From: a virus
Reading direction: 5' to 3' (one strand)
Virus record (IMG/VR): IMGVR_UViG_3300013212_000072
Coordinates: 17,299-81,298 of that record
DNA: 64,000 nt
How positions within the stretch are numbered: position 1 is the stretch's first letter; the number at the start of each line of letters is the position of its first letter. The notes under the pieces are model-generated. The model saw nothing but the letters and a program-made list of their open reading frames with translations, ran no database searches and was not told the DNA's origin. Made by a program: the position numbers and the translations under genes. This document shows, piece after piece, positions 5,109 to 28,032 of this stretch.

Positions 5109-5858
5109 ATGCAAAAAAGAACAGTGGAAAGTAAATCAAAAACAACTAAAGCAAAACCCACAACTACTAAAAATCCAATTGGACGTCCTAAAAAAACAGT
5201 AGTAAAAGAATTAGATTTAGTAGGAGTACAATTAAAGCCGTCTCAATATGATTATTTTGAAAAAATTAAAAAAAATGAAATAACATTCTGTTCTGGTCCT
5301 GCTGGAACTTCAAAAACATTTACGGCATGTTATACTTCCCTATGGTTGCTAGCAACAAAAGGAGTTTCAAAAATTATTTTATGTAAACCAATTCAAGAAT
5401 CCGGAGAAAAACTTGGATTCCTACCTGGAGATATTGCAGACAAGGTTGACCCTTACATGCAATCATATATTTCAAATTTTAAAAAAATAGTAGGTGATGA
5501 ATTAACCGAAGGTTTAATTGCTTCAGGTGCTATTGAATTTAAGCCACTTGCATTTATGAGGGGTGATACATTTGATGATGCGTTTATGATTCTAGATGAA
5601 GCGCAAAATGCTCCATGGAATGCTCTTATACTATTTATTACTAGAATGGGTAAAAATTCTAAAGTACTAGTATCTGGAGATATAAGTCAGTATGATATTG
5701 CAAAAGATAAGGTAACATTTCATAAATTCATAGAAATGTATAAACCAGTACATGGTGTTGGAGTTCATGAGTTTGGGATTAAAGACATTGTGCGTGCAAA
5801 AATATTACAAGAAATTGTAAGCATTTATGATAAATGGAAATCCGATAATAATCTTTAA
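5109..5858 (+). CDS. phoH: PhoH-family ATPase; the last ~55 codons appear to be a cassette-borne replacement
   Basis: GPAGTSKT Walker A, LGFLPGD, MRGDTF, ILDEAQN, TRMG, GDISQYD. ATG 5109 is preferred over GTG 5085 because AATATATA lies at 5092. Confidence 0.92.
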   Translation: MQKRTVESKSKTTKAKPTTTKNPIGRPKKTVVKELDLVGVQLKPSQYDYFEKIKKNEITFCSGPAGTSKTFTACYTSLWLLATKGVSKIILCKPIQESGEKLGFLPGDIADKVDPYMQSYISNFKKIVGDELTEGLIASGAIEFKPLAFMRGDTFDDAFMILDEAQNAPWNALILFITRMGKNSKVLVSGDISQYDIAKDKVTFHKFIEMYKPVHGVGVHEFGIKDIVRAKILQEIVSIYDKWKSDNNL

Positions 5859-5867
5859 TACATAAAT

Positions 5868-5980
5868 AAAGTTGCGTATGAGATGTTGATTTTGTAGTTA
5901 TTTTCATGAAATTTTCATATGCAACTTTTTTATAATTTTTTGGTGATATATAATCTAACTACAAATATATTATCAACATC
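5868..5980 (+). promoter_or_regulatory. Two-stem leader with late-promoter motif GATATATA (5945)
   Basis: Stem A 5868-5883/5913-5928. Stem B 5882-5900/5956-5980, ending at the ATG. Confidence 0.7.
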
Positions 5981-6775
5981 ATGAAAAACTACAAATATTA
6001 TTATGTTTATAGAATAACTAATACTTTACATAATAAACATTACTACGGCTACAGATCTTCTAATACCTCACCTTTATTAGATATTGGTATTAAATATTTT
6101 TCTTCGAGCAGAGATAAAGATTTTATAAAAGACCAAATTGAAAATCCAAATAATTATAAATATGTTGTTGTTAGGGTTTTCGAAAATAGGGAAGATGCAC
6201 ATAATTTAGAAATAGAACTGCATGCAAAATTCAATGTAGGTATTAATCCATCATTTTATAATAGAGCAAAAGCAACTAGTTCTAGATTTTCAATAACTGG
6301 AACTTCTCTATCAGATGAAACCAAAAAAAGAATGTCAATATCACATAAAGGCAGGATTGTTTCTCAAGAAACTAGAGATAAAATATCGAATGCTAACAAA
6401 GGAAAAAAGCATACGGATAAATTTAAAGATAAAATTAGAAATCGAGCGCAAGGAAATTCATATCATAAAAATAAAAAGCATACTGAAGATTCAAAGGTTA
6501 AGATGAGCAATTCACTTAAAGGAAAGAAAGCATGGAATAAAGGTATAAAGACTCCGGATGAAGTTAAAGCAAAACAATCATTAGCTAAATTAAATATGAC
6601 TCAAGAGCAAAAAGATAAAATGCATTCTTGGAAAAAAGGTCGACCATTATCTGAAGAAACTAAGAAAAAATTATCAAAACCTCAAACAAAGGTAGAATGT
6701 CTATATTGTAATAAAATTGGAGGTATTTCTGCAATGAAACAATATCATTTCGATAATTGCAAACAAAAAATATGA
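5981..6775 (+). CDS. Free-standing GIY-YIG homing endonuclease (Seg-like) with NUMOD3-type repeats and C-terminal CxxC..HFDNC
   Basis: YVYRITN..KHYYGYRS; repeated S.ETKKKMS/H T motifs; CLYC...HFDNCK. Confidence 0.88.
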   Translation: MKNYKYYYVYRITNTLHNKHYYGYRSSNTSPLLDIGIKYFSSSRDKDFIKDQIENPNNYKYVVVRVFENREDAHNLEIELHAKFNVGINPSFYNRAKATSSRFSITGTSLSDETKKRMSISHKGRIVSQETRDKISNANKGKKHTDKFKDKIRNRAQGNSYHKNKKHTEDSKVKMSNSLKGKKAWNKGIKTPDEVKAKQSLAKLNMTQEQKDKMHSWKKGRPLSEETKKKLSKPQTKVECLYCNKIGGISAMKQYHFDNCKQKI

Positions 6776-6941
6776 TATACCAAAAGCAAGTGCAGGTCTT
6801 CCAGGATTCATGCAGCTAATGAAGGGAATTAAAGGAACAGGAGAACATGTTTTTGAGAATAAAGATATTGTAAGAGCTAAAATACTTCAAGATGTTGTAG
6901 ACAGATACGACAAATGGAGAGTTGAAAATCCTGAAAAATAA
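6771..6941 (+). pseudogene. Stranded second (probably original) phoH 3' end
   Basis: Translates YDIPKASAGLPGFMQLMKGIKGTGEHVFENKDIVRAKILQDVVDRYDKWRVENPEK*. Ungapped and 26/55 identical (by-hand count) to PhoH 5691-5858. Confidence 0.88.
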
Positions 6942-6942
6942 G

Positions 6943-6969
6943 AAACTATCTGGAATCCATCTATATAAT
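6943..6969 (+). promoter_or_regulatory. AAAC-N17-TATAAT promoter
   Basis: aaac 6943-6946, tataat 6964-6969. Confidence 0.65.
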
Positions 6970-6986
6970 ACGTATAAAACATATAG

Positions 6987-7619
6987 ATGGAAACCAGACA
7001 AATACTACTTAAGCACTCCTACACAGGAGATGAATCAATTATAGAAATTGGTGTTGATGAGGCTGGCCGAGGTTCACTAAGTGGACCTGTTACGGTAGCC
7101 GCATGTATAATGCCATTTGGATTTGAAAACCCCCTGATCAAAGATTCAAAACTATTAAATGAGCAACAGCGAAAAGAGGCTCGTCGAATTATCGAGGAAA
7201 ACGCTATTGCATATCACATTGAACATATATCTCCCGAAGATATTGAGGCAACTAATATCTTAAAAGCAACCTTAATTGGAATGCAACGATGTTTAGAAGG
7301 TGTAAAGAATAATGCATTATTTGACTTTATATTAGTTGATGGCGACCAATTCCACGGATTTGAAGGAATTCCTTTTGAAACAGTAGTTGGAGGAGACAAT
7401 AAATATATTTCAATTGCTGCTGCAAGTATTCTAGCCAAAACCGAACGGGATTCAGTTATGAAAGATTTGGATATTGAGATTCCCGGATATGGCTGGAATT
7501 CAAATAAAGGGTATGGCACCGCGGCACATTTAATTGCAATTAAAGAATTAGGCCCAAGTAAGTATCATAGAATGAGTTTTATATCGCATTTGTTAACATC
7601 AACTAATTCTTTATTTTAA
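6987..7619 (+). CDS. rnhB: Ribonuclease HII
   Basis: GVDEAGRG, DSK, LVDG, GD..YISIAAASILAK..RD, NKGYGT..H, HRMSF. Confidence 0.95.
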   Translation: METRQILLKHSYTGDESIIEIGVDEAGRGSLSGPVTVAACIMPFGFENPLIKDSKLLNEQQRKEARRIIEENAIAYHIEHISPEDIEATNILKATLIGMQRCLEGVKNNALFDFILVDGDQFHGFEGIPFETVVGGDNKYISIAAASILAKTERDSVMKDLDIEIPGYGWNSNKGYGTAAHLIAIKELGPSKYHRMSFISHLLTSTNSLF

Positions 7620-7628
7620 AATATTTTT

Positions 7629-7749
7629 AAAGGGTCTCTACTTATACATATATTTTGTTTGTCGTTATTCTAAAATAGTTTGTCTAGAGGCCCTTTTTTC
7701 TTATGATGTGAGATATATAATATAACGACAAACAAAAATATTATATTAA
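7629..7749 (+). promoter_or_regulatory. Two-stem leader with GATATATA (7712)
   Basis: Stem A 7629-7640/7685-7696 plus T-run. Stem B 7653-7668/7722-7737 (16 bp perfect). Confidence 0.7.
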
Positions 7750-8392
7750 ATGTACATCTACAAGACAACAAACAACAAACAACATCAACAACAAAATTTA
7801 TATTGGACTATCTACTAGATTAGTAGAAGAGTCGAAAGATTACTTTGGTTCCGGATTAAAATTAAATAAAGCTATTCAAAAATATGGCAAAGAAAATTTT
7901 ACTAAAGAAATAATAGAAAGTGGTATAGCAAATAAAGAGTTATTAAATGCTCGAGAAGTGTATTGGATATCCTATTACAATTCGACTGATAAATATGTTG
8001 GATATAATATTTCAAATGGAGGTACTGGAGGAGATATGATAACTAATAATCCTAATAAAAATAAAATTTTAGAAAAAATATCTATTGCGGTAAAAAAATC
8101 ATGGAATGATGACCGTAAAGAACATTATAAAAAATTATGGGAAGGTTCTAACAATCCTAATTATGGTAAAGAATTCTCAGAGGAACACAGAAAAAAGATT
8201 AGAGAAGGTGGGATTGGAAATACTAATGCAGCAGTACCTTGCTCAAACGAAAAGAAAAATAAGATTAGTAAAAAATTAAAAGGAATTAAACAGATTGTGG
8301 TTGAATGTCCACATTGTAAGTTAACCGGAGGAAACCCTATAATGAGAAGATACCATTTTGATAATTGCAAGCAAATAAAAAATAAAAAATGA
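7750..8392 (+). pseudogene. GIY-YIG homing endonuclease frameshifted by a 7-nt tandem duplication
   Basis: ATG 7750 gives MYIYKTTNN. AAACAAC is duplicated (7770-7776, 7777-7783). Removing one copy gives INNKIYIG...YFGSG in frame with ORF 7958-8392 (CPHC...HFDNCK). Confidence 0.85.
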
Positions 8393-8733
8393 GATCGTTA
8401 ATTTATGGTATTCTATTGTTCCTATTTGGACAATCGTTTATATGGTTCCAAACAAACGGACAGTTTATGTGGCCATGGTTTAAAAAGAATCCACTCCTAG
8501 TTGCAATAATTGGAGGGTCTACAATATCATACGTTTTTATAGAGGCAACCAGAATGATTGCAGAATATTATGACGGACAATTATGGCCTGGAAGATTTAT
8601 TGGATTTTCAATGGGCATGATTTCATTCTCTATATTAACATATTACATAATGAATGAGCCACTAAACGCAAAGACCATAATCTGTTTGATACTTTCATTA
8701 GCCCTAATCTGTGTCCAAATATTTTGGAAATAA
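8389..8733 (+). CDS. Small 4-TM membrane protein (DMT/SMR-like)
   Basis: Four hydrophobic segments in 114 aa; NEPL..K motif before the last TM. Confidence 0.6.
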   Translation: MRSLIYGILLFLFGQSFIWFQTNGQFMWPWFKKNPLLVAIIGGSTISYVFIEATRMIAEYYDGQLWPGRFIGFSMGMISFSILTYYIMNEPLNAKTIICLILSLALICVQIFWK

Positions 8734-8746
8734 CATTAACAAAAAA

Positions 8747-8819
8747 TTAACATAATTTTAACAACCCAGATTTTCGGATCTGGGTTTTTTTGATTATATT
8801 TACATATCTAATTAAAACA
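8747..8819 (+). repeat. Terminator hairpin + early promoter cassette, copy 1
   Basis: aacccagatt-ttcg-gatctgggtt, T-run, TTATATTTACAT. Near-identical copy at 25053-25124. Confidence 0.8.
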
Positions 8820-8829
8820 AAGAAATATT

Positions 8830-9090
8830 ATGAGTTACACAAGATTTGATAGACAAGAAAACATGGTTGCAGAAACTAGAACTGAAATTATGGGAATCAT
8901 TAGAGAAATTGGAGACAATGATTACTCTAGAAACCTAGAAAATATGATGTATGGTTTATTTGATGGATATTTATACGCTGAAATTCAAATTGAAGCCCTT
9001 CAATTACCTACCGAACTGGCTTCAAAAGTTATGAGAATCTTCGATATCTGTAACCGTTATCCTAAATACGAACCTCAAACAAATTATTAA
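8830..9090 (+). CDS. Hypothetical (probably early) protein
   Basis: ORF directly after the promoter cassette. Confidence 0.7.
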   Translation: MSYTRFDRQENMVAETRTEIMGIIREIGDNDYSRNLENMMYGLFDGYLYAEIQIEALQLPTELASKVMRIFDICNRYPKYEPQTNY

Positions 9091-9091
9091 G

Positions 9092-9223
9092 ATGAAAACT
9101 TTTAAAAAAAGATTTGATTTTCTTTGGATTCCGAGTTATCCGGGAATGTTAACTTTAATGTGGATGTGCATATTATTTGCAATTGCAGAAATTATAACTA
9201 TAGTATTAATATTGATAAATTAA
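9092..9223 (+). CDS. Small single-TM protein (43 aa), missing from the ORF track
   Basis: MKTFKKRFDFLWIPSYPGMLTLMWMCILFAIAEIITIVLILIN*; fills the gap exactly. Confidence 0.6.
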   Translation: MKTFKKRFDFLWIPSYPGMLTLMWMCILFAIAEIITIVLILIN

Positions 9224-9227
9224 ATAA

Positions 9228-9539
9228 ATGGAAACTTTCAAAAAAATAGAAGTAGTAAAAAACTTAGTTGCAAAATATCTTAAGGAAAACGGCGAACATG
9301 CTGGACTAAGCGAATTAGATTGTCAAAATGCGCATATTGTCGAAATAGGAACATCAATCTTATGTACCAAATGGCAAGTTGGATATGCTGGAGGTGGATT
9401 CGTTCAAGCAGTTGTAGATAACGATTTACAAGGTGCTATTGGTAGAGCAGATGGTACTAGTATTCGGGCTCTTAAATTCTATTGTCAATTAATGTATAAT
9501 GTCGGGATGCCTTACTTTAATGAGGAACTATTAAAATAA
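9228..9539 (+). CDS. Hypothetical protein
   Basis: GGFVQAVVDNDLQGAIGRAD motif; function not recognised. Confidence 0.65.
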   Translation: METFKKIEVVKNLVAKYLKENGEHAGLSELDCQNAHIVEIGTSILCTKWQVGYAGGGFVQAVVDNDLQGAIGRADGTSIRALKFYCQLMYNVGMPYFNEELLK

Positions 9540-9546
9540 TAAAAAC

Positions 9547-9933
9547 ATGGACATAAAAAATTTTAAATGTAATGGCATTAGTCTTAATTCAAATGCCGAT
9601 AAAGTAAAACCCTTTATTCAAACTGCAATATCTTTATATAGAATGAGAAACTCTTCTCATGAGATAATTGAAAAACTGGTACAAAATAATCCTAAGTATG
9701 ATTATTACCCTGGCACTAGATTTTCTAACAATGAAGCAATTGCTATTCGAATATGCTCAGGTCTTGTAGAATTAGCTTTAAATTCTGGCAAACAAGATAA
9801 TACAATTGAAGAGAATATCGAATCATTTGTGAATTCTCTATCTGGCACAGAACTAGACCAGATAATTTTAGAAGCTATGCGAGATTGTGCAAGTGCCGAC
9901 CACTGGTATGCTTTTGAAAAAGAATGGGATTAA
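9547..9933 (+). CDS. Hypothetical protein
   Basis: ORF within the operon. Confidence 0.65.
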   Translation: MDIKNFKCNGISLNSNADKVKPFIQTAISLYRMRNSSHEIIEKLVQNNPKYDYYPGTRFSNNEAIAIRICSGLVELALNSGKQDNTIEENIESFVNSLSGTELDQIILEAMRDCASADHWYAFEKEWD

Positions 9934-9958
9934 ACTTTTTAAATTAACTTAATATAAA
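9932..9958 (+). promoter_or_regulatory. AAAC-N17-TATAAA promoter
   Basis: aaac 9932-9935, tataaa 9953-9958. Confidence 0.6.
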
Positions 9959-9962
9959 ATAC

Positions 9963-10871
9963 ATGGGAGCTAACTACGGATATTGTTGTATAAATCTAAC
10001 TCTAGACAAGAGTGGTATTAAAATCGGGCGTTCAATGATTAAAAAGACCTTTGACGCAAAAGGTATCAAATACGCTGGAGAACTTGCCGAGGCAAATATC
10101 CGTGACATGATAGAAATTATTAAATGGAATCATAAAAACGGTGTTACATTATATCGTATGTCCTCTAGTATGTTTCCATGGATGTCAGAATACGAGCTTA
10201 CTGATTTGCCAAATTGGTCAACAATTTCAAATCTACTAAAGGGTGCTGGCACACTAGTGCAAAAATACGGACAGCGTGTTGGTTTTCATCCTGGACAGTT
10301 TTGTGTACTTCCAAGTCCAAATCAAAAAACCGTAGACAATTCTATTAAAGAACTCGACCAACATGCATTTATTCTTGATACTATGGGTCTACCGGTTAAT
10401 CAACAATACTCTATGAATATTCATGTTGGTGGTTCTTACGGAGATAAAGAAGCTGCAATCCTAAGATTCATTGAAAACTTTAAATTGTTATCTCCTTCTG
10501 CACAGTCTCGTTTAATCCTTGAAAACGACGATAAACCTGCGCAATATTCGGTAAGCGACCTTTACCGAATCTATCAAGCGGTTGGTACGCCTATCACCTT
10601 TGATTACCATCACCATCGATGTTACAATGACCCGATGTCCGAACAAGATGCTCTTCTTTTGGCAGCTCGTACTTGGCCTAAAGGTATTCGCCAATTGTGT
10701 CACTACTCAAGCGCTAAAAAATTACACGAGGATGCTTCTGTTATTATAAGAGCACATGCTGATTATTTGTATGAATTTATTGATACTTACGGTATGGAAA
10801 TAGACATTGAACTTGAAGTAAAAATGAAAGAGCTAGCTTTATTAAAATATTTTAAAGATTACTTACATTAA
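9963..10871 (+). CDS. uvsE: UV-damage endonuclease (UvsE/UvdE); last ~17 codons cassette-borne
   Basis: GYCCIN, YRMSS.MFP, HPGQF.VL.SP, NIHVGG.YG, RLILENDD, FDYHHH, HYS, HAD, ELEVK.KELAL. Confidence 0.92.
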   Translation: MGANYGYCCINLTLDKSGIKIGRSMIKKTFDAKGIKYAGELAEANIRDMIEIIKWNHKNGVTLYRMSSSMFPWMSEYELTDLPNWSTISNLLKGAGTLVQKYGQRVGFHPGQFCVLPSPNQKTVDNSIKELDQHAFILDTMGLPVNQQYSMNIHVGGSYGDKEAAILRFIENFKLLSPSAQSRLILENDDKPAQYSVSDLYRIYQAVGTPITFDYHHHRCYNDPMSEQDALLLAARTWPKGIRQLCHYSSAKKLHEDASVIIRAHADYLYEFIDTYGMEIDIELEVKMKELALLKYFKDYLH

Positions 10872-11704
10872 AATCAATAAATTTCAATAAGTAAGGTAAG
10901 GCAAAAGATATATAAAGTAAAGTAAAATAAACTATGTATACTAGAAACTGTCCTACGTGCAATAAAGAAATTTCATATTCAAATAAAGGTAATGCAGATA
11001 GAGCTATAAATGGTAAAAAGGTTTGTAAATCATGCTCGGTTAAACTTAGAAATAATGACAAAACATATTTAAACAAAATATCTGAATCTAGAAAAAAATA
11101 CTTTAAAGAATTGTCTGAAGAAGATAAAGAAATTTGGAAGTCTAATAACTCAAAAGCTCAAAAGAAAGCATGGGAGAATAAAAGTGATGAAGACAGAGAA
11201 AAATATGCAAAAAATGTAAGTGAACAATCAAAAGAAAGATGGAGTGACCCTGATTATACAGAAAGAGTTTCAACATCTATGAAAGAAAACCCATGGCCTA
11301 AAAATAAAACTCCTGAAGAAATTATTGAAATAAATAAAAGAACAACCACTACTAAATATGAAAAGTACGGAACATTATTTCCAGGAGGAGGAAACAAACA
11401 AAAGAAAACTATAATAAAAGGATTGATATGTGAAAGTTCATTTGAGTTAAAATATATTGAATCTTTAATTTCTAAAAATATAGAGTTGCCAAAAAATGCA
11501 AAACGTATTGAAACTCCATTTGGATATTATACTCCAGATTTTGAATATGAAGACAGATTTATAGAAATAAAGTGTGAGTTTACCTATAAGGTTTTAATTG
11601 GAGAATCTTCATTTAGTAAAAGTGGAAATTATAATCCAAAGCAATTAAATAAAATAAAGTGGGTTAGTGAAAATATTAAAAATGTAGAAATAATAGTTCT
11701 TTAG
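10818..11704 (+). mobile_element. Endonuclease cassette 3: replacement uvsE 3' end + promoter + PD-(D/E)XK nuclease gene
   Basis: Deleting 10819-11704 restores an in-frame uvsE ending ELEAKSKELALQKYQKEYILCEK*. Confidence 0.75.
10934..11704 (+). CDS. Zn-ribbon + PD-(D/E)XK putative homing endonuclease
   Basis: CPTC...CKSC, helical repeats, SSFE...YTPDFEY...FIEIK. GATATATA at 10907. Confidence 0.75.
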   Translation: MYTRNCPTCNKEISYSNKGNADRAINGKKVCKSCSVKLRNNDKTYLNKISESRKKYFKELSEEDKEIWKSNNSKAQKKAWENKSDEDREKYAKNVSEQSKERWSDPDYTERVSTSMKENPWPKNKTPEEIIEINKRTTTTKYEKYGTLFPGGGNKQKKTIIKGLICESSFELKYIESLISKNIELPKNAKRIETPFGYYTPDFEYEDRFIEIKCEFTYKVLIGESSFSKSGNYNPKQLNKIKWVSENIKNVEIIVL

Positions 11705-11766
11705 CAAAATCAAAAGAATTGGCTCTTCAAAAATACCAAAAAGAATATATACTCTGTGAAAAATAA
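11704..11766 (+). pseudogene. Stranded second (probably original) uvsE 3' end
   Basis: AKSKELALQKYQKEYILCEK* aligns without gaps to VKMKELALLKYFKDYLH*. Confidence 0.8.
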
Positions 11767-12073
11767 AACAATTGAGTTAGACAAACTAAAAAAGGAAGTT
11801 AACCTATTTTTAGAGGCTCTTAAAAAAGAGGGCATTGAAACAAAATCAATGTCTAAACTTTTAACAACATGTGTTATAGAACGCAGACCTTTAACTGATG
11901 AAGAGGGTAAGAAGTTTGCAAATCAATTAAAAAATCTGGTTAAGACTCTTGGACTGGCAACAATAATCCTAATGCCAGGAGGTTCAATATTCTTTATATT
12001 AATACACTATCTTAAACTTCGAGACTACTTTCTTTCAGACAGTTTTAATTATTTAAAAAATAAAGATATATAA
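11756..12073 (+). CDS. LETM1-like small membrane protein
   Basis: QLKNLVKTLGLATIILMPGGSIFFIL...LSDSF resembles the bacterial LETM1-related motif. GTG start. Confidence 0.5.
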   Translation: MKNKTIELDKLKKEVNLFLEALKKEGIETKSMSKLLTTCVIERRPLTDEEGKKFANQLKNLVKTLGLATIILMPGGSIFFILIHYLKLRDYFLSDSFNYLKNKDI

Positions 12074-12099
12074 AATCTAAACAAAAATACAAATATATT

Positions 12100-12582
12100 A
12101 TGGCAAGTATTAAAAGATTCGAAGAATTTGTCTCAGAAATGGACAGAGCCGAAGAAATAGAAGCAGACGTTGTTGCTAAAGGAACTCCTGATGTTAAATC
12201 TGAAGAAGAAACAGAAGAGGAAGCAGAAGAGGTTCAAGGATTAGACGAAGCTGTCGAAGCAAACATTGGAGATGACGCTGAAGAAATTAAAGAAGAGACT
12301 AAACCTGTTTCAGAACTATTAAAAGATTGCTACGAGGCAGTTATTGCAGAGGCTAAAGCATGGGAAGAAGATGCGCACGATGAGCATACTGTAGAAACAT
12401 ATATGGCTGAAAATGCAGCACTTGTTGCAGGTATGGCAGCTAATTGTGTTAAAGAAATGAAAAAAGACATGGCTTCTGAAGCATATGAAGCATGCTTAAA
12501 CAAAATGAGCGAGGCTTTCAGTAAGAAAATTAATGAAAATAAAGAGGCCACTGCAGCTACAGACGCTGAAGATATTAAATAA
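12100..12582 (+). CDS. Acidic protein with capsid-targeting-like N-terminus (internal head/core protein candidate)
   Basis: MASIKRFEEFVSE; very E-rich; GATATATA at 12065. Confidence 0.55.
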   Translation: MASIKRFEEFVSEMDRAEEIEADVVAKGTPDVKSEEETEEEAEEVQGLDEAVEANIGDDAEEIKEETKPVSELLKDCYEAVIAEAKAWEEDAHDEHTVETYMAENAALVAGMAANCVKEMKKDMASEAYEACLNKMSEAFSKKINENKEATAATDAEDIK

Positions 12583-12601
12583 TAAATCCGGTCCAACCGG
12601 T

Positions 12602-12649
12602 AAACTAAATAAAAAGTCTATATATAATAAACATATATAGACTTTTTTT
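12602..12649 (+). terminator. 15-bp inverted repeat/T-run overlapping an AAAC-N17-TATAAT promoter
   Basis: Arms 12611-12625/12633-12647; aaac 12602, tataat 12623. Confidence 0.6.
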
Positions 12650-13165: not shown

Positions 13166-13355
13166 TAATATATTTGTCCCGGCAAAGAAAGAGTTAAAAC
13201 AATTTCTTAAAGATAATGGCAGTGAACTATTTTATGTAAGATATGTGAAAAACGTCGATGCATTAATTGGTAGTTCAAAGTCTGTAGATTACATAGATAA
13301 ATTTAAAAACAAATATCGAAATGAAAGTGATTCAGTCTTTTTTGAATTGGACTAA
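13155..13355 (+). CDS. Hypothetical protein
   Basis: Short co-directional ORF. Confidence 0.55.
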   Translation: MSINNIFVPAKKELKQFLKDNGSELFYVRYVKNVDALIGSSKSVDYIDKFKNKYRNESDSVFFELD

Positions 13356-13401
13356 GAAACATTTTTTCAAAAAGCAATATAATTATAAAAATACATTAAA
13401 A

Positions 13402-15644: not shown

Positions 15645-17522
15645 ATGGCTGGAGAAAAAGGCTGGTTTGATAAAGCAAAAGAAAAGGTTGGATCTGCGTT
15701 TAAAACTACTAAAGATTCCTCAATAGGAAAGGGTTTTATTAACATTGTTAAAAATGTAACTGGATTTGACCTTGAAAATTTAGATGGAACAAATCCCGAT
15801 GGGGTGCATTCTGGATCTGATAATTTGTATAGAAGACCTGTTGGAGCTAATAAAAAAAATCCAGATCTAACACAGTTACGAGCCGCGGCGCAGGATGCTC
15901 CTTTTGCAATAACAGGTTCGAAAACAGGTTCTAAATACTATACTGAAATTGTTGATTCTGAAATATATACATCAACTTCTCCAACATCAAAAGGCAAACG
16001 GTTTGATGTTGGCAAAAAACCATATTCTCATTTTAATAAATATTCGCTGATTAACTATAGAGGTACTCCGCTAGACATAACGCCAAATGGATTTGAATCT
16101 AATATTGGAGGAAATACGGTTTATCAAAAAATAGATATGCAGACTCTTCAAAATCCAACGGTAACTCAGATTATAGAAAGAACTTCAGCAATTGCTATTG
16201 GAACTGGAAAAGATGCACAAACTGCTGATAATTATGCATACAGATACCAATATTCAGATTTTGCACTAGCAAAATACTACGGCAAAATACCAAACAATAT
16301 GCTTATTACTCTTCGTAGATTTGCATACCCTGCTCCTGACGATATTATAACTCCAAAAGGTTTACATAAAGATGGAAAAACTATGGTAAGCATTCAACAG
16401 CCGGATATTGCGAGAGCAGTAACATGGATTGGTGAAGCACCTGGAAATGCAATTGGAGAAATAATAAAATTTAAAAATGGATTTGGATGGGATGAAGCAG
16501 AATCTCAGGCACAAGAGATAACTTCAAAACAACAAGCCGCTTCAGGATCTTTTGGAAATGCTGTTCAAAGCAATATGATACTGTCTGCAATGGCCAACGC
16601 AGGTGCAGGTAGAGATGCAGTTGCATCAAATATGAATAAACAAAATGCAGGATATGATTCGTTTAAAGAAACATATCCAAATCATGTTTTTGGTCCATTA
16701 AATGTTATTAAAAAAGTATTAATTAGAAAGCAGGGTCTTGAATTTGACCAAACATTTACACTTAAGTTTGAATATGAATTAAGAGCATTTGAAGGAGCAA
16801 ACCCTAAAATTATGATGCTGGACCAACTTGCAAATATTTTGGCATTAACATATAACAATGCTCCTTTTTGGGGAGGATCTGTTAGATATATTAGTGATGG
16901 GGCGGTTGCAAAACCATTAGGTAATCTAGAAAAACTTCGAGAAGGAGATTATCTTGGATTTGCTGGAAGCATTGCTGATGATATGAGTAAAATGTTCACT
17001 GGAGTTGGTGCTGGTGTTGGAGGTGCTGTAGGAGCATTAATGAGAGGCGACTTTAGCGCTGCACTAGGAGCTCTTAAGGATAATAAGTTTTTAAATAATC
17101 TTATTGGAGGTGCTGCAATGGAAATGTTTAATACTCCGCAAGGATCTATGGCAGTTCAGTCATTGCTTACTGGTGACCCCACCGGACAATGGCATGTAAC
17201 TATAGGTAATCCTCTTAATCCAATAATGGTGATTGGAAATTTATGCATGCAAGATTGTGAAATTACATTTTCAGGTGGCATGGGAATTCAAGATTTTCCA
17301 GAACACATGTCTGTTGTTATTACATTAAAACCAGGTCGACCAAGAGATAAAGCTGAAATTGAATCAATGTTTAACTCAGGAAGAGGTCGTTTTTATGTTC
17401 AACCTGATGATACTGCTGATATTAACAAAACAGTGGATGTTAGTGCATATGGAAATAAGGATAGAAAAGGATCTGGTACAGATACATTCATAAACAATTT
17501 TAGAAAATTAAGCAACGGATAA
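15645..17522 (+). CDS. Virion structural protein, probably baseplate/tube-initiator
   Basis: GATATATA at 15613; directly upstream of the gp53-like gene; C-terminal HVTIGNP...FP...V.ITLKP resembles a tube fold. Confidence 0.5.
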   Translation: MAGEKGWFDKAKEKVGSAFKTTKDSSIGKGFINIVKNVTGFDLENLDGTNPDGVHSGSDNLYRRPVGANKKNPDLTQLRAAAQDAPFAITGSKTGSKYYTEIVDSEIYTSTSPTSKGKRFDVGKKPYSHFNKYSLINYRGTPLDITPNGFESNIGGNTVYQKIDMQTLQNPTVTQIIERTSAIAIGTGKDAQTADNYAYRYQYSDFALAKYYGKIPNNMLITLRRFAYPAPDDIITPKGLHKDGKTMVSIQQPDIARAVTWIGEAPGNAIGEIIKFKNGFGWDEAESQAQEITSKQQAASGSFGNAVQSNMILSAMANAGAGRDAVASNMNKQNAGYDSFKETYPNHVFGPLNVIKKVLIRKQGLEFDQTFTLKFEYELRAFEGANPKIMMLDQLANILALTYNNAPFWGGSVRYISDGAVAKPLGNLEKLREGDYLGFAGSIADDMSKMFTGVGAGVGGAVGALMRGDFSAALGALKDNKFLNNLIGGAAMEMFNTPQGSMAVQSLLTGDPTGQWHVTIGNPLNPIMVIGNLCMQDCEITFSGGMGIQDFPEHMSVVITLKPGRPRDKAEIESMFNSGRGRFYVQPDDTADINKTVDVSAYGNKDRKGSGTDTFINNFRKLSNG

Positions 17523-19560: not shown

Positions 19561-19589
19561 TTCTATTAAATAAAAATAATATATAATAC

Positions 19590-21520: not shown

Positions 21521-21551
21521 TTGGGATAAATATCCTATAAATTAACACAAT

Positions 21552-23786
21552 ATGCCTGCACAGTGGCCAATATTTATTAATAACGTTTCCAAAAAACTGG
21601 CCAGTAGAACTTCTAAAGGTCCAGATGATATTGGTACGTTTGTTGCTAATGAATATTTTAATGCTGTTAAAACCGCACAAACTCCATTTGGAAATATCCA
21701 TAAATCTGGACAAAAGCCAATACTTGAAGAGGGATTTAAAAAGGCATTCAATATGTTATTCAAATCTCTTGAACCTCAATTAGAAGATAAATTTGGAAAT
21801 CCATTATATGATGACATGTTTGAAAAACTTCCTGGAGTAGATTTAAGCACAAATCCGGATTGTGACTTTGAAGAGTGGACAATAAAGAATAAAGAAACGA
21901 TAACACCATTTGAATTCTATCCTTTATTTCCTACGACATGTATAATTCCAAAACCAATTGTTTCTCCAACTAATCTTTTTGGAGATATTGATATAACTTC
22001 TGAAAATGTAGATAACCAACCGGAACTTCGATATGTAACAATGTCCGTTTTTGGCGGTGATGGAACTTCTCCATACGAATTTACATATTCATTAAATGGA
22101 ATCGTACAACCAACATTGACTTCTGATAGCCAAGGAGTTGTAAAGTTCTTAGCTCCTACGGATCCTGGTAAATATGAGTATATTTTTATTAGTGCAATGG
22201 ATGCATCTAAACTGGCAGAAATTAAAAATATAGATAGAAGTGCTTCAATAGAAATAAAAGAAGACACAAAGGCAGTTGAAATTAAAGTCGATCCACCTGT
22301 AGCTTTTCAACTTGTAAAACCTATGACTGAAGCTCAGCAAGTTGATGAACTTACAAATAGAGTATTATACCAAAATGATGGAACTGAAACATATTTAGAT
22401 TGGGTTGAAAGACTTCCATATCACGGGGATTTTGCTAGAAAAGTAAGTAAACAAGTTTTAGAATTTTTAGATAAAGAAACCAACTCTATAAAAACAGGAA
22501 CTGGAATTAATGGACTTCCACAGACTAACGCAATTAGTCCAATCAATGTTACTAGATACAATTACGAAAGTCAACTCAATTCCGCGACTGAATCTATTAG
22601 AAAGGCAAAAGAAAAATATAATAAATTAGTTGAAAAAGATAATTCATCTAAGGTTAAAGTTGATTCAATTCAGAAAACGCATGCACGCGTTGAAGTGCTC
22701 CGATCTGAAATTTTGCTAGAAAGAATTGAATTAGAGTATAAAAAAAAAAACGATTATAATAATTTTGGCACTAATGTAGTTTCAACATCTACATCCCCTA
22801 GAATTGAAAGTTTAAATGAACAACTTGCAGTAGAATTACAGTTAATTAATATTGATGTTCTTAAAAAAAATATTAACAAGATTAAAGATATTGATTCAAT
22901 TGATTTTATAATGGCTAAGATTAAGATATACCAAAATGAATTAACAGTTGCACAATCAAATTCACGAAGAGATACTAATAAAATAGATACTTTAAATAGA
23001 GAACTAACAGTACAATCTCTTCGTGTAATAAAACTTAAGAATAAAATCAAAAAAGAAGCAGCCACAAATGATAGATTATTTCAAGAAGAATATGATGATA
23101 GACCTGATAGTATACCAAAATTCATAACTTCAAAATTGATATGTATATTTACATATGTTAAAGGAATTGATAATAATCAAAAAAACGCGCCAAGTAAGAA
23201 CCCAATACTTGCGACTAATACTACTAGTTATAATAGTGGTTACGGTAACTTAAATGGAAATACAAAAAATGAAACATTTGGTCAATGGTCTAAGAGAACC
23301 GAACCGGGCCGTATAAATGCAAAATTGACTAGGTATAATCTTGAAAAGGTTAAATATAGAGACCTAAAAATAAGACATATTAATCAAATAGCGGAAGATA
23401 ATAAAAAAGCTGGGAATGCATGCGGCGCCGATGATGCGTATTGCGTAATGTCAAAATGTATACTTGACTATTGGAAATCTACAGCAGCGCAGCCATTTGC
23501 AACATCACCACCTATATTACCGTGTTTAATACCATCTCCTGGAAATTACATTCCAATATATTATGGAGATGAATCAAAATTAGGGGCAGATTTAAGAAGA
23601 GCATGGAATACTGGTAAAAGATTTAAAATTGAACCAACTCTACAGACTGCTACAAAAGCAGTTGCAACTGCAGTTGCGGCATCATGCGCAAAGCATCTCT
23701 TAGATCTGAAATTCATATACAATGGACAAATACCAACACCTAGCGGTCCTGTTCCAATGATTGGTTTTTCACCATTGGCCTTATAA
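21552..23786 (+). CDS. Large protein of unknown function, probably virion-associated
   Basis: Ig-like segment plus coiled coil; follows the spike gene. Confidence 0.5.
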   Translation: MPAQWPIFINNVSKKLASRTSKGPDDIGTFVANEYFNAVKTAQTPFGNIHKSGQKPILEEGFKKAFNMLFKSLEPQLEDKFGNPLYDDMFEKLPGVDLSTNPDCDFEEWTIKNKETITPFEFYPLFPTTCIIPKPIVSPTNLFGDIDITSENVDNQPELRYVTMSVFGGDGTSPYEFTYSLNGIVQPTLTSDSQGVVKFLAPTDPGKYEYIFISAMDASKLAEIKNIDRSASIEIKEDTKAVEIKVDPPVAFQLVKPMTEAQQVDELTNRVLYQNDGTETYLDWVERLPYHGDFARKVSKQVLEFLDKETNSIKTGTGINGLPQTNAISPINVTRYNYESQLNSATESIRKAKEKYNKLVEKDNSSKVKVDSIQKTHARVEVLRSEILLERIELEYKKKNDYNNFGTNVVSTSTSPRIESLNEQLAVELQLINIDVLKKNINKIKDIDSIDFIMAKIKIYQNELTVAQSNSRRDTNKIDTLNRELTVQSLRVIKLKNKIKKEAATNDRLFQEEYDDRPDSIPKFITSKLICIFTYVKGIDNNQKNAPSKNPILATNTTSYNSGYGNLNGNTKNETFGQWSKRTEPGRINAKLTRYNLEKVKYRDLKIRHINQIAEDNKKAGNACGADDAYCVMSKCILDYWKSTAAQPFATSPPILPCLIPSPGNYIPIYYGDESKLGADLRRAWNTGKRFKIEPTLQTATKAVATAVAASCAKHLLDLKFIYNGQIPTPSGPVPMIGFSPLAL

Positions 23787-23825
23787 AACAAATATATAAT
23801 TTATTAACCTTTAAAAATAAAAACA

Positions 23826-25040
23826 ATGTCACAAGACGTTTTAACTAAACAAACAGAGAATCAACTAAACGATATCTCTAACTTTGATTGGGATTTGTAT
23901 TCTGCAGATTGCCCATCTACTCTTAGAAAGATAAACCACCATGTAAAAGCTCCAGAAGGTGTTAAGGTGTATTCAAGAGAACCTTATGCCCAAGAACTTC
24001 TTAATTTAATGGAAAGTCACTGGAGTGAAAATACACAAACTCATATTATACATGCTGGAGAAACCCACACTGGTAAAGTGTACGCAGTAGATATGGAATG
24101 GGCATCTATCGATATTGGATATCGAGAAATGGTGTATGTTCAATTGTCAAAAGAATCTGCAATCTCAAGATCAAAATTAATTCCTGGAACTGAAATATCT
24201 GTTGAAATTACGGCAGAAAAAAGTAAAAGTACCAGAGGATTTGTATTAGGTTCCGTTGAAGCTGGTATTAAAGCTGCTACATTAAGAGAAATTTTAGCAT
24301 CTGCTGAAACTGGAAATACTGCCTATATGGGAACTGTAACAAGTATGATTCCAGGTGGAGGTTACTTTGTTAATGTGCAAGGAGTCGATTGTTTCATGCC
24401 GGGATCCCTAGCAGGTATTAATAAACTTGCAGATTTTGGTTCTGTCATTAACACACAAATGTATGTAGTACCGATGAGTTACTCTCCTGAGAAAGGAACA
24501 GTAATTGTATCTCATAGAAAATATCTTCAAGCACTTATTCCAAATGCGATTGAAGACCTTAGAAATAATCCTGGAGAAACTAAAGAAGGTAACGTAACAG
24601 GTTCTACAAAATACGGAGTATTTGTTGAATTTGATAATTGTTTAACTGGAATGATTCATGCAAATGATTTAAACCCTGAAATGGCAAGAAAACATAAGGC
24701 TAGAGAAATTAATCCAGGTGATGTTATTGATTTTAAGATTAAAGAAATAATCAACAATGATAAAATAACATTGACTCAATTAGAGCATGTTGAAATTAAC
24801 GACCCATGGTCTGATGTTGCTACTAAGTATAAAAGCTTTCCAGTTGAAGTTAAAGGTACAATAAAATCTGTTAAAGATTATGGAGTATTTGTAGATGTTG
24901 GAGATGGAATTGTTGGATTACTTCACGTATCCGAACTTCCTGATAATGTTAAGGTTGATTCGCTTACAAAGAACGATAATATTACCGTTCAAATAACAAG
25001 AATGGACGTAGCTACTAGAAAAGTTTTCTTGAAACTATAA
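23826..25040 (+). CDS. rpsA: Ribosomal protein bS1 homologue (four S1 domains)
   Basis: GGYFVNVQGVDCFMPGS, IVSHR, GNVTGSTKYGVFVEF..LTGMIH, VKGTIKSVKDYGVFVDVGDGIVGLLHVSEL. Confidence 0.85.
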   Translation: MSQDVLTKQTENQLNDISNFDWDLYSADCPSTLRKINHHVKAPEGVKVYSREPYAQELLNLMESHWSENTQTHIIHAGETHTGKVYAVDMEWASIDIGYREMVYVQLSKESAISRSKLIPGTEISVEITAEKSKSTRGFVLGSVEAGIKAATLREILASAETGNTAYMGTVTSMIPGGGYFVNVQGVDCFMPGSLAGINKLADFGSVINTQMYVVPMSYSPEKGTVIVSHRKYLQALIPNAIEDLRNNPGETKEGNVTGSTKYGVFVEFDNCLTGMIHANDLNPEMARKHKAREINPGDVIDFKIKEIINNDKITLTQLEHVEINDPWSDVATKYKSFPVEVKGTIKSVKDYGVFVDVGDGIVGLLHVSELPDNVKVDSLTKNDNITVQITRMDVATRKVFLKL

Positions 25041-25124
25041 TTGTTAATAACTTTAACATAAAATTAACAACCCAGATTTTAGGATCTGGGTTTTTTTGTT
25101 TATATTTACATTATAATTAAAACA
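25041..25124 (+). repeat. Terminator hairpin + early promoter cassette, copy 2
   Basis: Near-identical to 8747-8819; preceded by TTGTTAATAACTTT as at 3030. Confidence 0.8.
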
Positions 25125-25136
25125 GATATATAAAAC

Positions 25137-25925
25137 ATGAACAAATTTAAAACATACGGACAATTCTTAAATGAGTCAAATCAAGATAATATTGTTAATG
25201 TTATTTTAGATTCGTTGGAACCTACAATTGTTGAAATGTTAGCTGCAACCGAAAAATGGTTTGTTGAGACCTTTAAACAGGAGTTTACTAAATATGACAG
25301 AGAGTATGCTAGAATCAATTTAACATACGATATGGTTAAATCTATTGAAATGTATACCTTACCAACCGATTCACTATTATCAATGAACGTGCGTAAGAGC
25401 GTTAAAGGAAATATTCAAATTGATGCTCAAATCCAAAGAGGAGAAAACACTTATAGTTTCCAAACTGAAGCGATTTATGCAGGAGGACATAACATTCAGA
25501 GACTTCACTATAGATATATTGTTAAGACCAGCATTCCAAAAACTGGAGCTACCGAAATTGCTAAAGAATATGCAGACAAAATTAAGAAAATGTCTAAGCT
25601 TGAACAAATTAATAAAGAAATAAATAGTTACAAGCAACGTATTAAAATAGAACAAGAAAAACTTGAAGTTAACTCTAAATTAACAGATGATGAGATTAAG
25701 GCAAAAAGTGATTATGTATGGCCGACTTGGAAAGAAATTGTAAAGAGAGATGCTGCTAAAAATTATAATAATGACGAAGCATACTACTATCAAGAACAAG
25801 AAAGAAGCATCCAAGCTCAAATCGATAGTTGGAAACGAATTAATGTTACTTCAATACAAACGTGGTTAGTAAGCGTTAACAAATCACTTCAAAAACTTAT
25901 AGCAAAACGGGATTCTATGGTATAG
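25137..25925 (+). CDS. Protein with capsid-targeting-like N-terminus
   Basis: MNKFKTYGQFLNES; preceded by both the early cassette and GATATATA (25125). Confidence 0.6.
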   Translation: MNKFKTYGQFLNESNQDNIVNVILDSLEPTIVEMLAATEKWFVETFKQEFTKYDREYARINLTYDMVKSIEMYTLPTDSLLSMNVRKSVKGNIQIDAQIQRGENTYSFQTEAIYAGGHNIQRLHYRYIVKTSIPKTGATEIAKEYADKIKKMSKLEQINKEINSYKQRIKIEQEKLEVNSKLTDDEIKAKSDYVWPTWKEIVKRDAAKNYNNDEAYYYQEQERSIQAQIDSWKRINVTSIQTWLVSVNKSLQKLIAKRDSMV

Positions 25926-25936
25926 TTATTTTTTAC

Positions 25937-26047
25937 TTGGATATATAACCTAACTTAAGTTAATATATCCAAATTGAATGAATACTCTATAAAAAATAAT
26001 GAGTTTGGGTTTTATTCTTAGATATATAGAATAAAACCCAAACTCAT
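25937..26047 (+). promoter_or_regulatory. Two GATATATA motifs in inverted repeats; 20-bp hairpin occludes the endonuclease ATG
   Basis: ttggatat../..atatccaa 25937-25972; perfect arms 25999-26018/26028-26047 with GATATATA (26021) in the loop. Confidence 0.75.
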
Positions 26048-26735
26048 GTTTCATTATGTTTATATTGTAAAACATCCGCAAACTGGTGAATTTTACTATG
26101 GAAGTAGAACTAGTTATGTTTTGCCAGAATTAGATGATTATAAAGGCTCGATGTGCAAATGGAAAGTTAATAAATTTGAATTAATTAAAACAATAGTTAA
26201 GACATTTAATTCCAGAGAAGAAGCATATTTATTTGAAAGAGAAATAATATTAAAAAATATAAGACATTCATTAAATAGAAATTATGCAATTCCATCAAAA
26301 CACGGTGCCGGCGCACTACCTGGTCCAAAAAATTCTTTTTTTGGTAAAAAACACACCGATGAATCTTTAATTAAAATGAAAGAAAACTCAAATAATGCAG
26401 GCGTTAATAATCCAATGTTTGGAAAAGAGCATAAAGATGTATCTAAAAAGAAAATGTCTATTAAAAAAATAGGCCTTTACAATGGCGTAAATAATCCGAT
26501 GTCTAAAAAACTATATCAATATGATATAAATGGAAATCTAATGAATATATGGGATTGTGCAACTCTATGCGTGAAACATTATGGTGATATTGGTATTAAT
26601 TTATCTAGAGGTAATATTTCCAATAGCGCAAAAAACAATTCAATTGAAGATACTTCGTTAAAAAGATTAAATGTATTTATCTTTTCATTTTCAGAGATAG
26701 ATATAGTTAGATTTAATAAATTTAAAAATAAGTAA
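26046..26735 (+). CDS. GIY-YIG homing endonuclease with NUMOD3/NUMOD1-like domains
   Basis: HYVYIV...FYYGSR; FFGKKHT, NPMFGKEH; KKLYQYDINGNL. Confidence 0.85.
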   Translation: MFHYVYIVKHPQTGEFYYGSRTSYVLPELDDYKGSMCKWKVNKFELIKTIVKTFNSREEAYLFEREIILKNIRHSLNRNYAIPSKHGAGALPGPKNSFFGKKHTDESLIKMKENSNNAGVNNPMFGKEHKDVSKKKMSIKKIGLYNGVNNPMSKKLYQYDINGNLMNIWDCATLCVKHYGDIGINLSRGNISNSAKNNSIEDTSLKRLNVFIFSFSEIDIVRFNKFKNK

Positions 26736-26739
26736 TATA

Positions 26740-28032
26740 ATGAATAATCTAAATGAATCTGACATTTTATCTAAATCTCTTATAGGTTGTGAATTTGAGT
26801 TCTACTCAAATTTTAGTGCTGAAGATACTGCAAAAAAACTTGAAAAACTGCTTGGCAAAAAGATTCACGTCGAGGATAAAGCACATAGCGATTTTGAAGT
26901 AACTCGCGATGAATTTAAAATAGAACCTGACATGTCGGGTGGAGCTAAACTTCTTGAGTTAGTTACTGGAGCCCTTCCATATACTGCAGCCAGACTAATG
27001 ATAATTAATGTTTGTCAATGGATTCAAGAGAATGGATATACAAATGATAGGTCTTCGATTCACTTAAATCTTTCATTTGATAAATCAAAAATTGAAAACA
27101 AGTATCGTATTTCTAAGATGAATGTTCTTAAATTCATTTTAGATTTTAATGAAGAGCAAGTATTCAAATTCTTTCCTAAAAGAGAAAACTCAGCCTACGC
27201 AAAATCTATTAAATTTGTCCTACCAAAAGAGGACACGTACTTCTTTGATGGAAAGCATATCAATCAACAAAACTTTATCTACCCTGATACAAAATATTAT
27301 GGGATAAATTTTGACAAAAGACATAAAAATTATCTGGAATTCCGCTATATTGGAGGAGAGGACTGGGAAAAGAAAACAACTACAATTCTTTATTTAGTTG
27401 ACCGTTTCCTACTTCAATTATGGAAATCAACCGAAAACCCAGACTTTACGGAATTAAATGCAATTGAATTAAAAAAAATAGTTGCAGATAACCAAAGAAT
27501 AATCGATGCTAGAAAGGACTGGAAAACAATTAAAGATAATTGGAAAAATGTTAAGTTCACTGTCGACATGGATGACAATCCTAAAGTAGTAGATTTATAT
27601 TGGACTTCTGTCAAAGAACGTGTAATGAAATTATTTACACATGGAGACCTTAGCAAAGGACATATTAATTATGATACTGACGCTGGTAAAATCCAAGTAA
27701 ATGGAGGTCGTTTAGAATATTGTGTTGACCTTAGAGGGTATGAATTTGTGAATTGTTTCTTGCGAGGAGAATTTACCGAATGCGATATGTATGGATGTGA
27801 TGTTAACGGTTCTGATATTCATTATTGTAATTTCTACCAATCAACACAACTTAATAGTTCTAAATTAGATGGTTCTTATGTTCATGGAACATGTACCGCA
27901 AATGATTGTTATGTCTATGGAAAAGGAACTTTTAAAGGAACAATGAATGGAGGAATCTTTAGAGAGGGTTCATTTGATAAAAAACTGGCTAGATTTAATG
28001 ATGTTGAAATTATTAAATCTAGAGCAATATAA
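26740..28032 (+). CDS. Putative amidoligase (COOH-NH2 ligase type) with C-terminal beta-helix-like repeats
   Basis: IGCEFEF, ELVTG, TNDRSSIHLN, KYYGIN, LEFRYIGG. Confidence 0.65.
   Translation: MNNLNESDILSKSLIGCEFEFYSNFSAEDTAKKLEKLLGKKIHVEDKAHSDFEVTRDEFKIEPDMSGGAKLLELVTGALPYTAARLMIINVCQWIQENGYTNDRSSIHLNLSFDKSKIENKYRISKMNVLKFILDFNEEQVFKFFPKRENSAYAKSIKFVLPKEDTYFFDGKHINQQNFIYPDTKYYGINFDKRHKNYLEFRYIGGEDWEKKTTTILYLVDRFLLQLWKSTENPDFTELNAIELKKIVADNQRIIDARKDWKTIKDNWKNVKFTVDMDDNPKVVDLYWTSVKERVMKLFTHGDLSKGHINYDTDAGKIQVNGGRLEYCVDLRGYEFVNCFLRGEFTECDMYGCDVNGSDIHYCNFYQSTQLNSSKLDGSYVHGTCTANDCYVYGKGTFKGTMNGGIFREGSFDKKLARFNDVEIIKSRAI

Follow-up and report, generated by a model that had tools for sequence, protein, structure and literature searches.

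How does a conserved phage gene stay whole when a nuclease gene settles within its end? The question is raised by a stretch of viral DNA, 64,000 nucleotides long (positions 17,299 to 81,298 of IMG/VR record IMGVR_UViG_3300013212_000072; hereafter the window, with coordinates counted from its first letter), in which the genes phoH and uvdE are each followed by a free-standing nuclease gene and then by a second, orphan copy of their own 3′ end. The comparison with relatives described here indicates that the end in use at each gene is foreign and that the orphan is the native end. The source is an uncultured freshwater phage of T4-like gene content; the window has a G+C content of 31%, and its genes lie nearly all on the + strand. 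No close relative was found by BLAST among 50,697 deposited phage records. The related sequences are contigs of IMG/VR, reaching 236 kb in length, and the matching public runs are lake and freshwater metagenomes; in a run search by query words, no public run matched half of the words. Comparisons were made with 38 phoH loci and 80 uvdE loci from IMG/VR (L-numbers below), the nearest empty (cassette-less) genome being L013/L050, one 15-kb contig. The nuclease genes linked to phoH, uvdE and an amidoligase gene are named endo1, endo2 and endo3, respectively.

The phoH locus is composed of the following features.

5085..5858, + strand: hybrid phoH gene (Pfam PhoH, E 7e-60), recipient-type body to 5612, foreign 3′ part from 5613
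5613..6768, + strand: foreign tract of 1156 nt, with 26 replaced codons, the used tail, a spacer with a promoter-like motif and the nuclease gene
5690..5858, + strand: used phoH tail, foreign type B, YDIAKDKVTFHKF...DNNL and stop, the tail type of L008, L022, L023 and L206
5981..6775, + strand: endo1, a free-standing GIY-YIG/NUMOD3 homing-endonuclease gene (predicted), 264 aa
6769..6941, + strand: orphan native phoH tail, type A, 55 codons, open frame, 97.7% DNA identity to the native tail of L013

The last 54 residues of PhoH (203-256) match window positions 6768-6929 in another frame (tblastn, E 3e-11, 48% identity), and the orphan frame after endo1 reads IPKASAGLPGF...NPEK, staying open to a stop at 6941. 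The stop codon of endo1 (TGA, 6773-6775) falls within TATGATAT of the orphan, whose homology begins at 6769. A nucleotide repeat search detected neither this pair of tails nor that of uvdE; the pairs are visible at the protein level and via relatives only.

Which of the two phoH tails is native can be read from the empty relative. The left flank (4900-5612) shares 98.7% DNA identity with L013, and the first mismatch is at 5613, immediately past the conserved GAAGCGCAAAATGC (motif DEAQNA). Identity then falls to 72.7% over the replaced, single-copy part of phoH (5613-5689) and to 62.0% over the used tail (5690-5858), the sub-segments of the foreign tract ranging from 58 to 73%, and returns to 97.7% in the orphan segment (6767-6941) and 98.4% in the right flank (6942-7516). 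More than 30 of the 38 phoH loci are cassette-less: they lack an inserted open reading frame (ORF), and phoH continues directly to the RNase HII gene (rnhII). The last 44 PhoH residues of these loci are 93-100% identical to the window orphan in close relatives and ∼66-84% identical in more distant ones, against ∼50% identity to the used tail of the window. Since cassette-less relatives, of uvdE as well as of phoH, end in the orphan sequence and not in the upstream tail, as the preliminary description of this DNA had anticipated, it is the orphan that is native and the end in use that is foreign. The used phoH tail is also without the P...SAGL motif, which is kept by 24 PK-type tails, and it has about 7 of the first 28 residues after the junction in common with the orphan, versus 17 of the next 26. 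L022 and L024 carry a type B tail with neither a nuclease gene nor leftover codons, the state expected before invasion or after nuclease loss. In an unrelated metagenome contig (L235:1341-2920), a GIY-YIG/zinc-finger gene begins 50 nt after a distant phoH (37% identity), and the 3′ flank of phoH seems to be a recurrent home for genes of this kind.

Does uvdE tell the same story? Its locus has these features.

9963..10871, + strand: hybrid uvdE (UV damage endonuclease) gene (Pfam UvdE, E 8e-60), foreign tail from ∼10812
10934..11704, + strand: endo2, with a zinc finger and a C-terminal restriction-endonuclease-like nuclease domain, putative homing endonuclease of an unnamed family, 256 aa
11704..11765, + strand: orphan native uvdE tail, 20 codons, 98.4% DNA identity to L050
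11756..12073, + strand: gene downstream of uvdE, its start overlapping the native uvdE end (5-35 nt after uvdE in relatives)

The two uvdE tails are too short for their match to be significant by itself (E 0.78), and it is the relatives that give the pair its meaning. The used end reads EVKMKELALLKYFKDYLH and stop, while the orphan frame, AKSKELALQKYQKEYILCEK and stop, overlaps the stop codon of endo2 (TAG, 11702-11704), which straddles the junction. Cassette-less uvdE genes end in ...EAKAKELALQKYQKEYILCEK and stop, which is the orphan sequence, and 5-35 nt beyond them lies the gene found after the orphan in the window (95.5% identical to L050). For the used tail, identity is 58% to L050, 55-60% across close relatives and 70-72% to the more distant lineages L057 and L200; the whole foreign tract measures ∼890 nt. 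The sole DNA difference between the orphan and the native tail of L050, at window position 11710, replaces Ala by Ser at the codon nearest the junction. That codon is Ala in 37 of 38 distinct nuclease-free alleles, Met, Met and Gln in nuclease-linked alleles, and Ser in the orphan. The last 10 nt of the orphan contain the GTG start of the next gene, which explains the retention of this last part. The order given for both loci in the preliminary description, in which a gene with a diverged tail is followed by a late promoter, an endonuclease gene and then a second copy of the same end as an orphan, agrees with the sequence and with the relatives, a promoter-like motif being found in the place of the late promoter. 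Separately, a uvdE relative in L059 (6880-6960) has a foreign 10-codon tail (DYIADLQLV and stop) followed by an 8-codon native orphan (EYILSEK and stop), the nuclease gene being absent; this arrangement may be the footprint of a lost cassette.

Duplicated ends of this kind could be false if the assembly had fused two co-occurring strains. The source is indeed a metagenome with many related strains, and independent contigs skip 7579-8390 (joint 7579>8390) and 10818-11741, so that empty alleles co-occur with the filled ones in freshwater metagenomes. However, when contigs assembled from four public runs were compared with the window, freshwater contigs from different studies were found to bridge the left phoH junction (5490-5848 and 5483-5783), the step from the tail to endo1 (5774-6110) and the step from endo1 to the orphan (6577-6824, with 4 mismatches), and related cassettes occur in four other contigs. 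The same contigs gave little or no cover over 10824-11576. At both loci the junction itself completes the stop codon of the nuclease, and the structure is ordered and in frame, which likewise counts against a chimera. For phoH, where the junctions assumed by the preliminary description are spanned independently, this explanation is largely refuted, and overall we consider it very improbable.

Are the cassettes, then, a disguised form of intron, intein or integrative element? The used tails terminate in stop codons and the nuclease ORFs lie in other frames with their own starts, which is not the arrangement of a group I intron or an intein. No Rfam intron match was obtained in 4800-12600 at E up to 1. 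The three inserted tracts of the window (1156, ∼890 and 762 nt, the last at the amidoligase gene) hold a single ORF each, the nuclease, and neither integrase, transposase nor intein, as previously proposed.

The nucleases themselves appear to belong to two families, in keeping with the preliminary description: a GIY-YIG fold is predicted for endo1 and a restriction-endonuclease-like fold for endo2. Both endo1 and endo3 match PHROG 314, ‘homing endonuclease’ (E 2.5e-31 and 2e-15, respectively), as well as NUMOD3 (endo1 E 1e-16, in three stretches; endo3 E 3e-8). Their group has a GIY-YIG motif of the form YVY-x10-YYG, with R25 and E77 invariant in 9 of 9 sequences, and a C-terminal C-x2-C...H-x3-C motif. 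Pfam GIY-YIG scores fall below the cut-off (endo1 E 1.1, endo3 E 0.01), and comparison of endo1 with sequences of solved structures gave a weak match to the DNA-binding part of I-TevI only. With an AlphaFold model of the N-domain of endo1 (pLDDT 77), the 12 best Foldseek matches are all GIY-YIG domains, at E values of only 0.02-0.8; the I-TevI catalytic domain (1mk0) ranks second (prob 0.99, TM 0.57-0.61), and UvrC and a GIY-YIG restriction enzyme are also found. On this combination of motifs and models, endo1 and endo3 are predicted to be GIY-YIG homing endonucleases with a modular DNA-binding region. The endo2 protein consists of an N-terminal zinc finger, a helical middle and a confidently modelled C-terminal domain (pLDDT 82-95) with the motif E171..PD202..E211xK213, in which E171, P201-D202, E211 and K213 are invariant in 10 sequences. 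Fold alignment of this domain gave TnsA (Z 6.8), the homing endonuclease I-Bth0305I (Z 5.8), Vsr (Z 5.7) and VRR-NUC (Z 5.3), Z scores below 8 being middling. Weak Foldseek matches are mostly to restriction-endonuclease-like nucleases, and Pfam RE_endonuc is matched below the cut-off (E 0.005); the full model has no Foldseek match below E 0.001, and the sequences of solved structures yielded nothing useful. The model is consistent with a restriction-endonuclease-like nuclease but is not decisive. Only 10 homologues of endo2 were found, all unnamed.

Relatives of both enzymes are found after the same genes elsewhere. Those of endo1 (75-78% protein identity) follow phoH in L008, L023/L205 and L206, and those of endo2 (40-42% identity) lie directly after uvdE, without an orphan, in L199 and L200, which are unrelated phage contigs. 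Such recurrence of a nuclease family right after one target gene is the pattern expected of a site-specific homing endonuclease. At phoH the replaced codons, the used tail, the spacer and the nuclease gene of the window are each 73-79% identical to the cassettes of L023, L008 and L206, which sit in three other phage backbones, and this uniform level across the tract indicates that tail and nuclease were inherited together and moved as a unit. The cassette has entered at least two backbones. Near-identical genomes differ in its presence, not only in the pair of the window and L013 but also in a second pair, L008 and the empty L018, in which the flanks are 93-100% identical, the tail is 57-70% identical and L008 has an insertion of ∼900 nt. 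The left boundary in L008 is that of the window, after GAAGC.CAAAATGC; the two invasions, at 5612/5613 of the window and at ∼2150 of L008, are independent and have in common a left recombination boundary directly past the DEAQNA-coding block of phoH. On the right, three distinct junctions are found. The window keeps 55 native phoH codons; in L023, L205 and L206 the nuclease is fused in frame to the last nine phoH codons (C/KWRIDNPEK and stop); and in L008 it is fused in frame to the last eight (C/KLVDNPEK and stop). In each carrier the leftover codons resemble the recipient's own lineage.

Could recombination between diverged phages have swapped the gene ends without any nuclease, the nuclease genes being passengers at mosaic boundaries? 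Mosaicism is general in phage genomes, the uvdE relative in L059 combines a foreign 10-codon end with an 8-codon orphan and no nuclease gene, and L022 and L024 have the type B phoH tail in the same nuclease-free condition. The states of L059 and L022 are, however, also expected from nuclease loss after invasion. Every insertion of the window relative to near-identical genomes at these sites holds a homing-endonuclease-like ORF, and in distant phages these nuclease families are again found behind these genes. Passenger status for the nucleases is for these reasons improbable.

The reading that we prefer, and hold to be probably correct, is that the nucleases are encoded by free-standing homing-endonuclease genes, placed just downstream of their target genes, which spread by double-strand-break repair (intronless homing). 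In a mixed infection the nuclease would cut a phoH or uvdE allele that is still free of the nuclease gene, within its 3′ part and near the position at which the orphan now starts. The left break end would be resected as far as a conserved coding block (at phoH, just past DEAQNA) and would invade the donor, and synthesis would extend across the diverged gene end, the spacer and the nuclease gene of the donor. On the right, closure would take place at or next to the break, through microhomology joining or else through pairing with a tail that the donor had retained from before. For T4, a review citing Parker et al. 1999 (PMC2988022) reports that one-sided intron homing yields microhomology junctions. 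The outcome, as the window shows it, is an intact hybrid gene with a foreign end, a nuclease gene, and the recipient's own end as an orphan; on this reading the orphan is a by-product that would erode later. At the amidoligase gene the same process may have acted on a 5′ end. The carried foreign end probably escapes cutting by the linked nuclease, given that divergence is strongest beside the junction, that P...SAGL is lost and that the uvdE junction codon is allele-specific.

Is the orphan a by-product, or a designed part? A pre-formed element could instead consist of a resistant gene end, a nuclease and a downstream fragment and be inserted by two-sided homologous repair, with the orphan as its working right homology arm; such a two-sided arm mechanism has been proposed for the WHO elements of yeast (PMC7282813). 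The codons left over in L023/L206 and in L008, at junctions that nearly coincide, agree with the lineage of the respective recipient, the window phoH orphan and its flanks resemble L013 to the same degree, and the junction of the L023 type could be derived from that of the window by deletion between two CAAA repeats. Against this, the three right junctions differ in sequence, the fragment in L008, L023 and L206 is just 8-9 codons long and too short for a good arm, and no fragment accompanies the endo2 relatives of L199 and L200. Lineage-matched leftovers fit the homology-arm model, then, whereas junctions that differ, and relatives that have no orphan, agree with the by-product model. Carriers in which endo relatives follow the same genes without an orphan (L199, L200 and L235) suggest that the orphan may arise as a by-product when the cassette enters a diverged genome, and we regard the designed arm as doubtful.

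Several points weigh against homing by intronless repair as set out above. The true donor is unsampled, and the best match to the window cassette is only 73-79%. A degenerate pattern search found the window-type junction between nuclease and phoH orphan in no IMG/VR contig, and this lack of a second carrier also speaks against the pre-formed element. A survey of ∼200 related loci (∼2 Mb, many of them redundant) gave no further clear case of a nuclease-flanked duplicated C- or N-terminus, returning otherwise only paralogues and a 42-nt repeat in L140. The endo2 cassette is documented by one assembly and by homologous proteins (57-83% identity) on other contigs, and its left boundary, near 10812, is diffuse on account of the patchy divergence of the uvdE gene body. 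The rarity of tail duplication and the unmatched junction of the window fit an occasional by-product better than an obligatory design.

A contrasting site lies between the two cassettes.

7517..8427, + strand: frameshifted GIY-YIG pseudogene (∼7750-8392) between rnhII and the next gene

The N-terminal part (MYIYKTTNN...) is encoded from ∼7750 in one frame and the remainder in the next frame to 8392. The 3′ end of rnhII and the 5′ end of the next gene have both diverged from L013, the two flanks being converted (7517-8427), and there is no duplicated end. By its sequence, this appears to be a site of classical intergenic intronless homing, and it indicates that end duplication is not obligatory for these elements.

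Can a 5′ end be exchanged in the same manner? The preliminary description had reported a mirror-image case, which falls at the amidoligase gene and has these features.

25978..25992, + strand: stranded native amidoligase start (ATGAATA, then foreign sequence to a stop codon); relatives run ...CCAAATTGAATGAATAATCTAAATG... uninterrupted
26046..26735, + strand: endo3, GIY-YIG/NUMOD3 homing-endonuclease gene (predicted), with PHROG 314 and NUMOD3 matches
26740..26805, + strand: apparent cassette-borne new amidoligase start and diverged first ∼22 codons, 74.6% identical to relatives

The gap between orf25137 and the amidoligase gene is 51-92 nt in relatives that have both genes and 815 nt in the window. 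Agreement with the relatives extends through ...CCAAATTGAATGAATA (ATG at 25978) and is broken by a 762-nt insert (25985-26746), which holds endo3 and ends in a second ATGAATA, after which the amidoligase gene resumes, with 75% identity to relatives over 26747-26805 and 96-97% from 26806 on. None of 80 related loci contains endo3. Judged from this alignment, a new start and ∼20 foreign codons appear to have arrived with endo3, stranding the native promoter region and start. The insert, the new start and the stranded native start of the mirror case therefore hold, but its orphan is demonstrable over 7-12 nt only. An extension of this orphan into the hairpin arm was considered, and is not relied on, since the 14/17-nt match was equalled by 65 of 2000 shuffles. 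In L140 (8380-8520), a gene located two genes downstream of the amidoligase gene contains a 42-nt direct repeat; copy 1 leads into a short new end with a stop codon, copy 2 carries on the original frame, and no nuclease gene is near.

How might the carried nucleases be expressed? Three leaders bear the same motif.

5945..5952, + strand: GATATATA promoter-like motif before endo1, 29 nt upstream of the endo1 start codon, with a leader hairpin around the motif
10907..10914, + strand: GATATATA motif before endo2
25999..26047, + strand: perfect 20-bp hairpin before endo3 with GATATATA in its loop (-28.2 kcal/mol, z -7.7)

The window contains 15 copies of GATATATA against 7.0 ± 2.4 expected; 14 of the 15 are on the coding strand, and all five nuclease ORFs have one shortly upstream. 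The preliminary description took the motif for a late promoter, which it may be. The 3′ arm of the endo3 hairpin covers the endo3 start codon, while endo1 and the GIY-YIG pseudogene have weaker two-hairpin leaders. As a predicted structure, the endo3 hairpin looks like a translational lock that would be opened by transcription from inside the hairpin. In the T4 arrangement that this leader resembles, only transcripts starting at the promoter within the hairpin are translatable.

Is any of this new? The preliminary description had put the cassettes forward as an undescribed system, and this claim does not stand, as the same architecture and logic have been published for mORF gene hybrids of fungal mitochondria (PMC3630166, PMC6279837) and for the WHO elements (PMC7282813). 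The mechanism is already known in fungal mitochondria and yeast; the phage host is new, no phage description of nuclease-flanked duplicated gene ends being present in the literature searched, which misses most subscription journals. The mORF hybrids include atp6 of Allomyces macrogynus, atp6, atp9, cox2 and nad3 of Glomus, and atp6 and cob of Endoconidiophora (PMC3630166, PMC6279837). As in the window, the gene body, a foreign C-terminus, an endonuclease ORF and the native C-terminus follow each other in this order, the native end is almost the same as in relatives without the element while the inserted end has strongly diverged, and the nucleases are of GIY-YIG or other families, with neither intron nor recombinase. 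The fungal host is mitochondrial DNA, whereas that of the window is a phage genome of virulent type; the fungal ORFs are often fused in frame to the gene, whereas in the window the nuclease ORF stands apart from the gene and has a promoter-like motif and leader hairpin of its own; and the fungal enzymes are LAGLIDADG or GIY-YIG, whereas one of the window appears to be restriction-endonuclease-like.

WHO elements replace the 3′ end of the yeast gene FBA1 at each integration (Coughlan et al. 2020, PMC7282813). They share with the window cassettes a unit made of a resistant gene end (at the window, probably so) and a nuclease gene, and the evolution of chimeric genes with discordant 5′ and 3′ parts. 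They differ in using intein-derived LAGLIDADG nucleases that act in meiosis, in forming tandem clusters of fragments and pseudogenes where the window has a single fragment per site, and in that allele-specific cleavage has been demonstrated for them, the window case being known from sequence alone.

Among phages, the T4 Seg and Mob enzymes (SegF, SegG, SegB, MobE) offer a free-standing GIY-YIG gene beside its target and co-conversion of flanking markers. They and one-sided intron homing probably also resemble the window cassettes in expression from non-early promoters with RNA hairpins and in microhomology junctions if one flank is without homology (PMC2988022). The T4 cases are, however, intergenic, intron-borne or gene-splitting (giving two polypeptides), whereas in the window the gene stays whole via the carried end and an orphan remains. 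No duplicated ends are described in the T4 literature searched, and ‘duplicat-’ is absent from a 2010 review. The elements e14 and phage 21 in icd likewise insert inside a gene and keep it intact by a carried copy of its 3′ end, but they do so with a tyrosine integrase and att sites, whereas the window cassettes measure 0.76-1.15 kb and have a nuclease ORF only.

What would the phage host add? The documented routes by which a phage gene survives invasion by a homing endonuclease are a self-splicing intron, an intein, a split gene and an intergenic position. The window offers a fifth, in which the element brings a spare gene end, with unusually clean evidence of the states before and after. It gives an explanation for the abrupt 3′-end divergence of phoH and uvdE among close relatives, and the orphan boundaries point to likely cleavage sites. 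The unnamed restriction-endonuclease-like family of endo2, which tracks uvdE, is a candidate new homing-endonuclease family. For annotation, orphan ORFs and chimeric genes should not be taken for new small genes or assembly errors. A bolder extension, which we put forward tentatively and think rather unlikely, is that terminus-replacement homing is a general and so far unrecognised lifestyle of free-standing endonucleases in large phages, in which a resistant gene end and its linked nuclease home together into gene interiors, the stranded native end serves as a downstream homology arm and C- and N-termini are exchanged repeatedly between lineages. If so, it would be a main cause of 3′-end mosaicism in conserved phage genes.

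Some further features of the window may be recorded. A fifth GIY-YIG-like homing-endonuclease gene (56896-57606) is 39% identical to endo1 and has GATATATA at 56791. Two sets of tandem paralogues are also present: three ORFs of ∼200 aa at 48033-49899, mutually 50-57% identical, and three larger ORFs at 45038-52336 with 24-36% identity.

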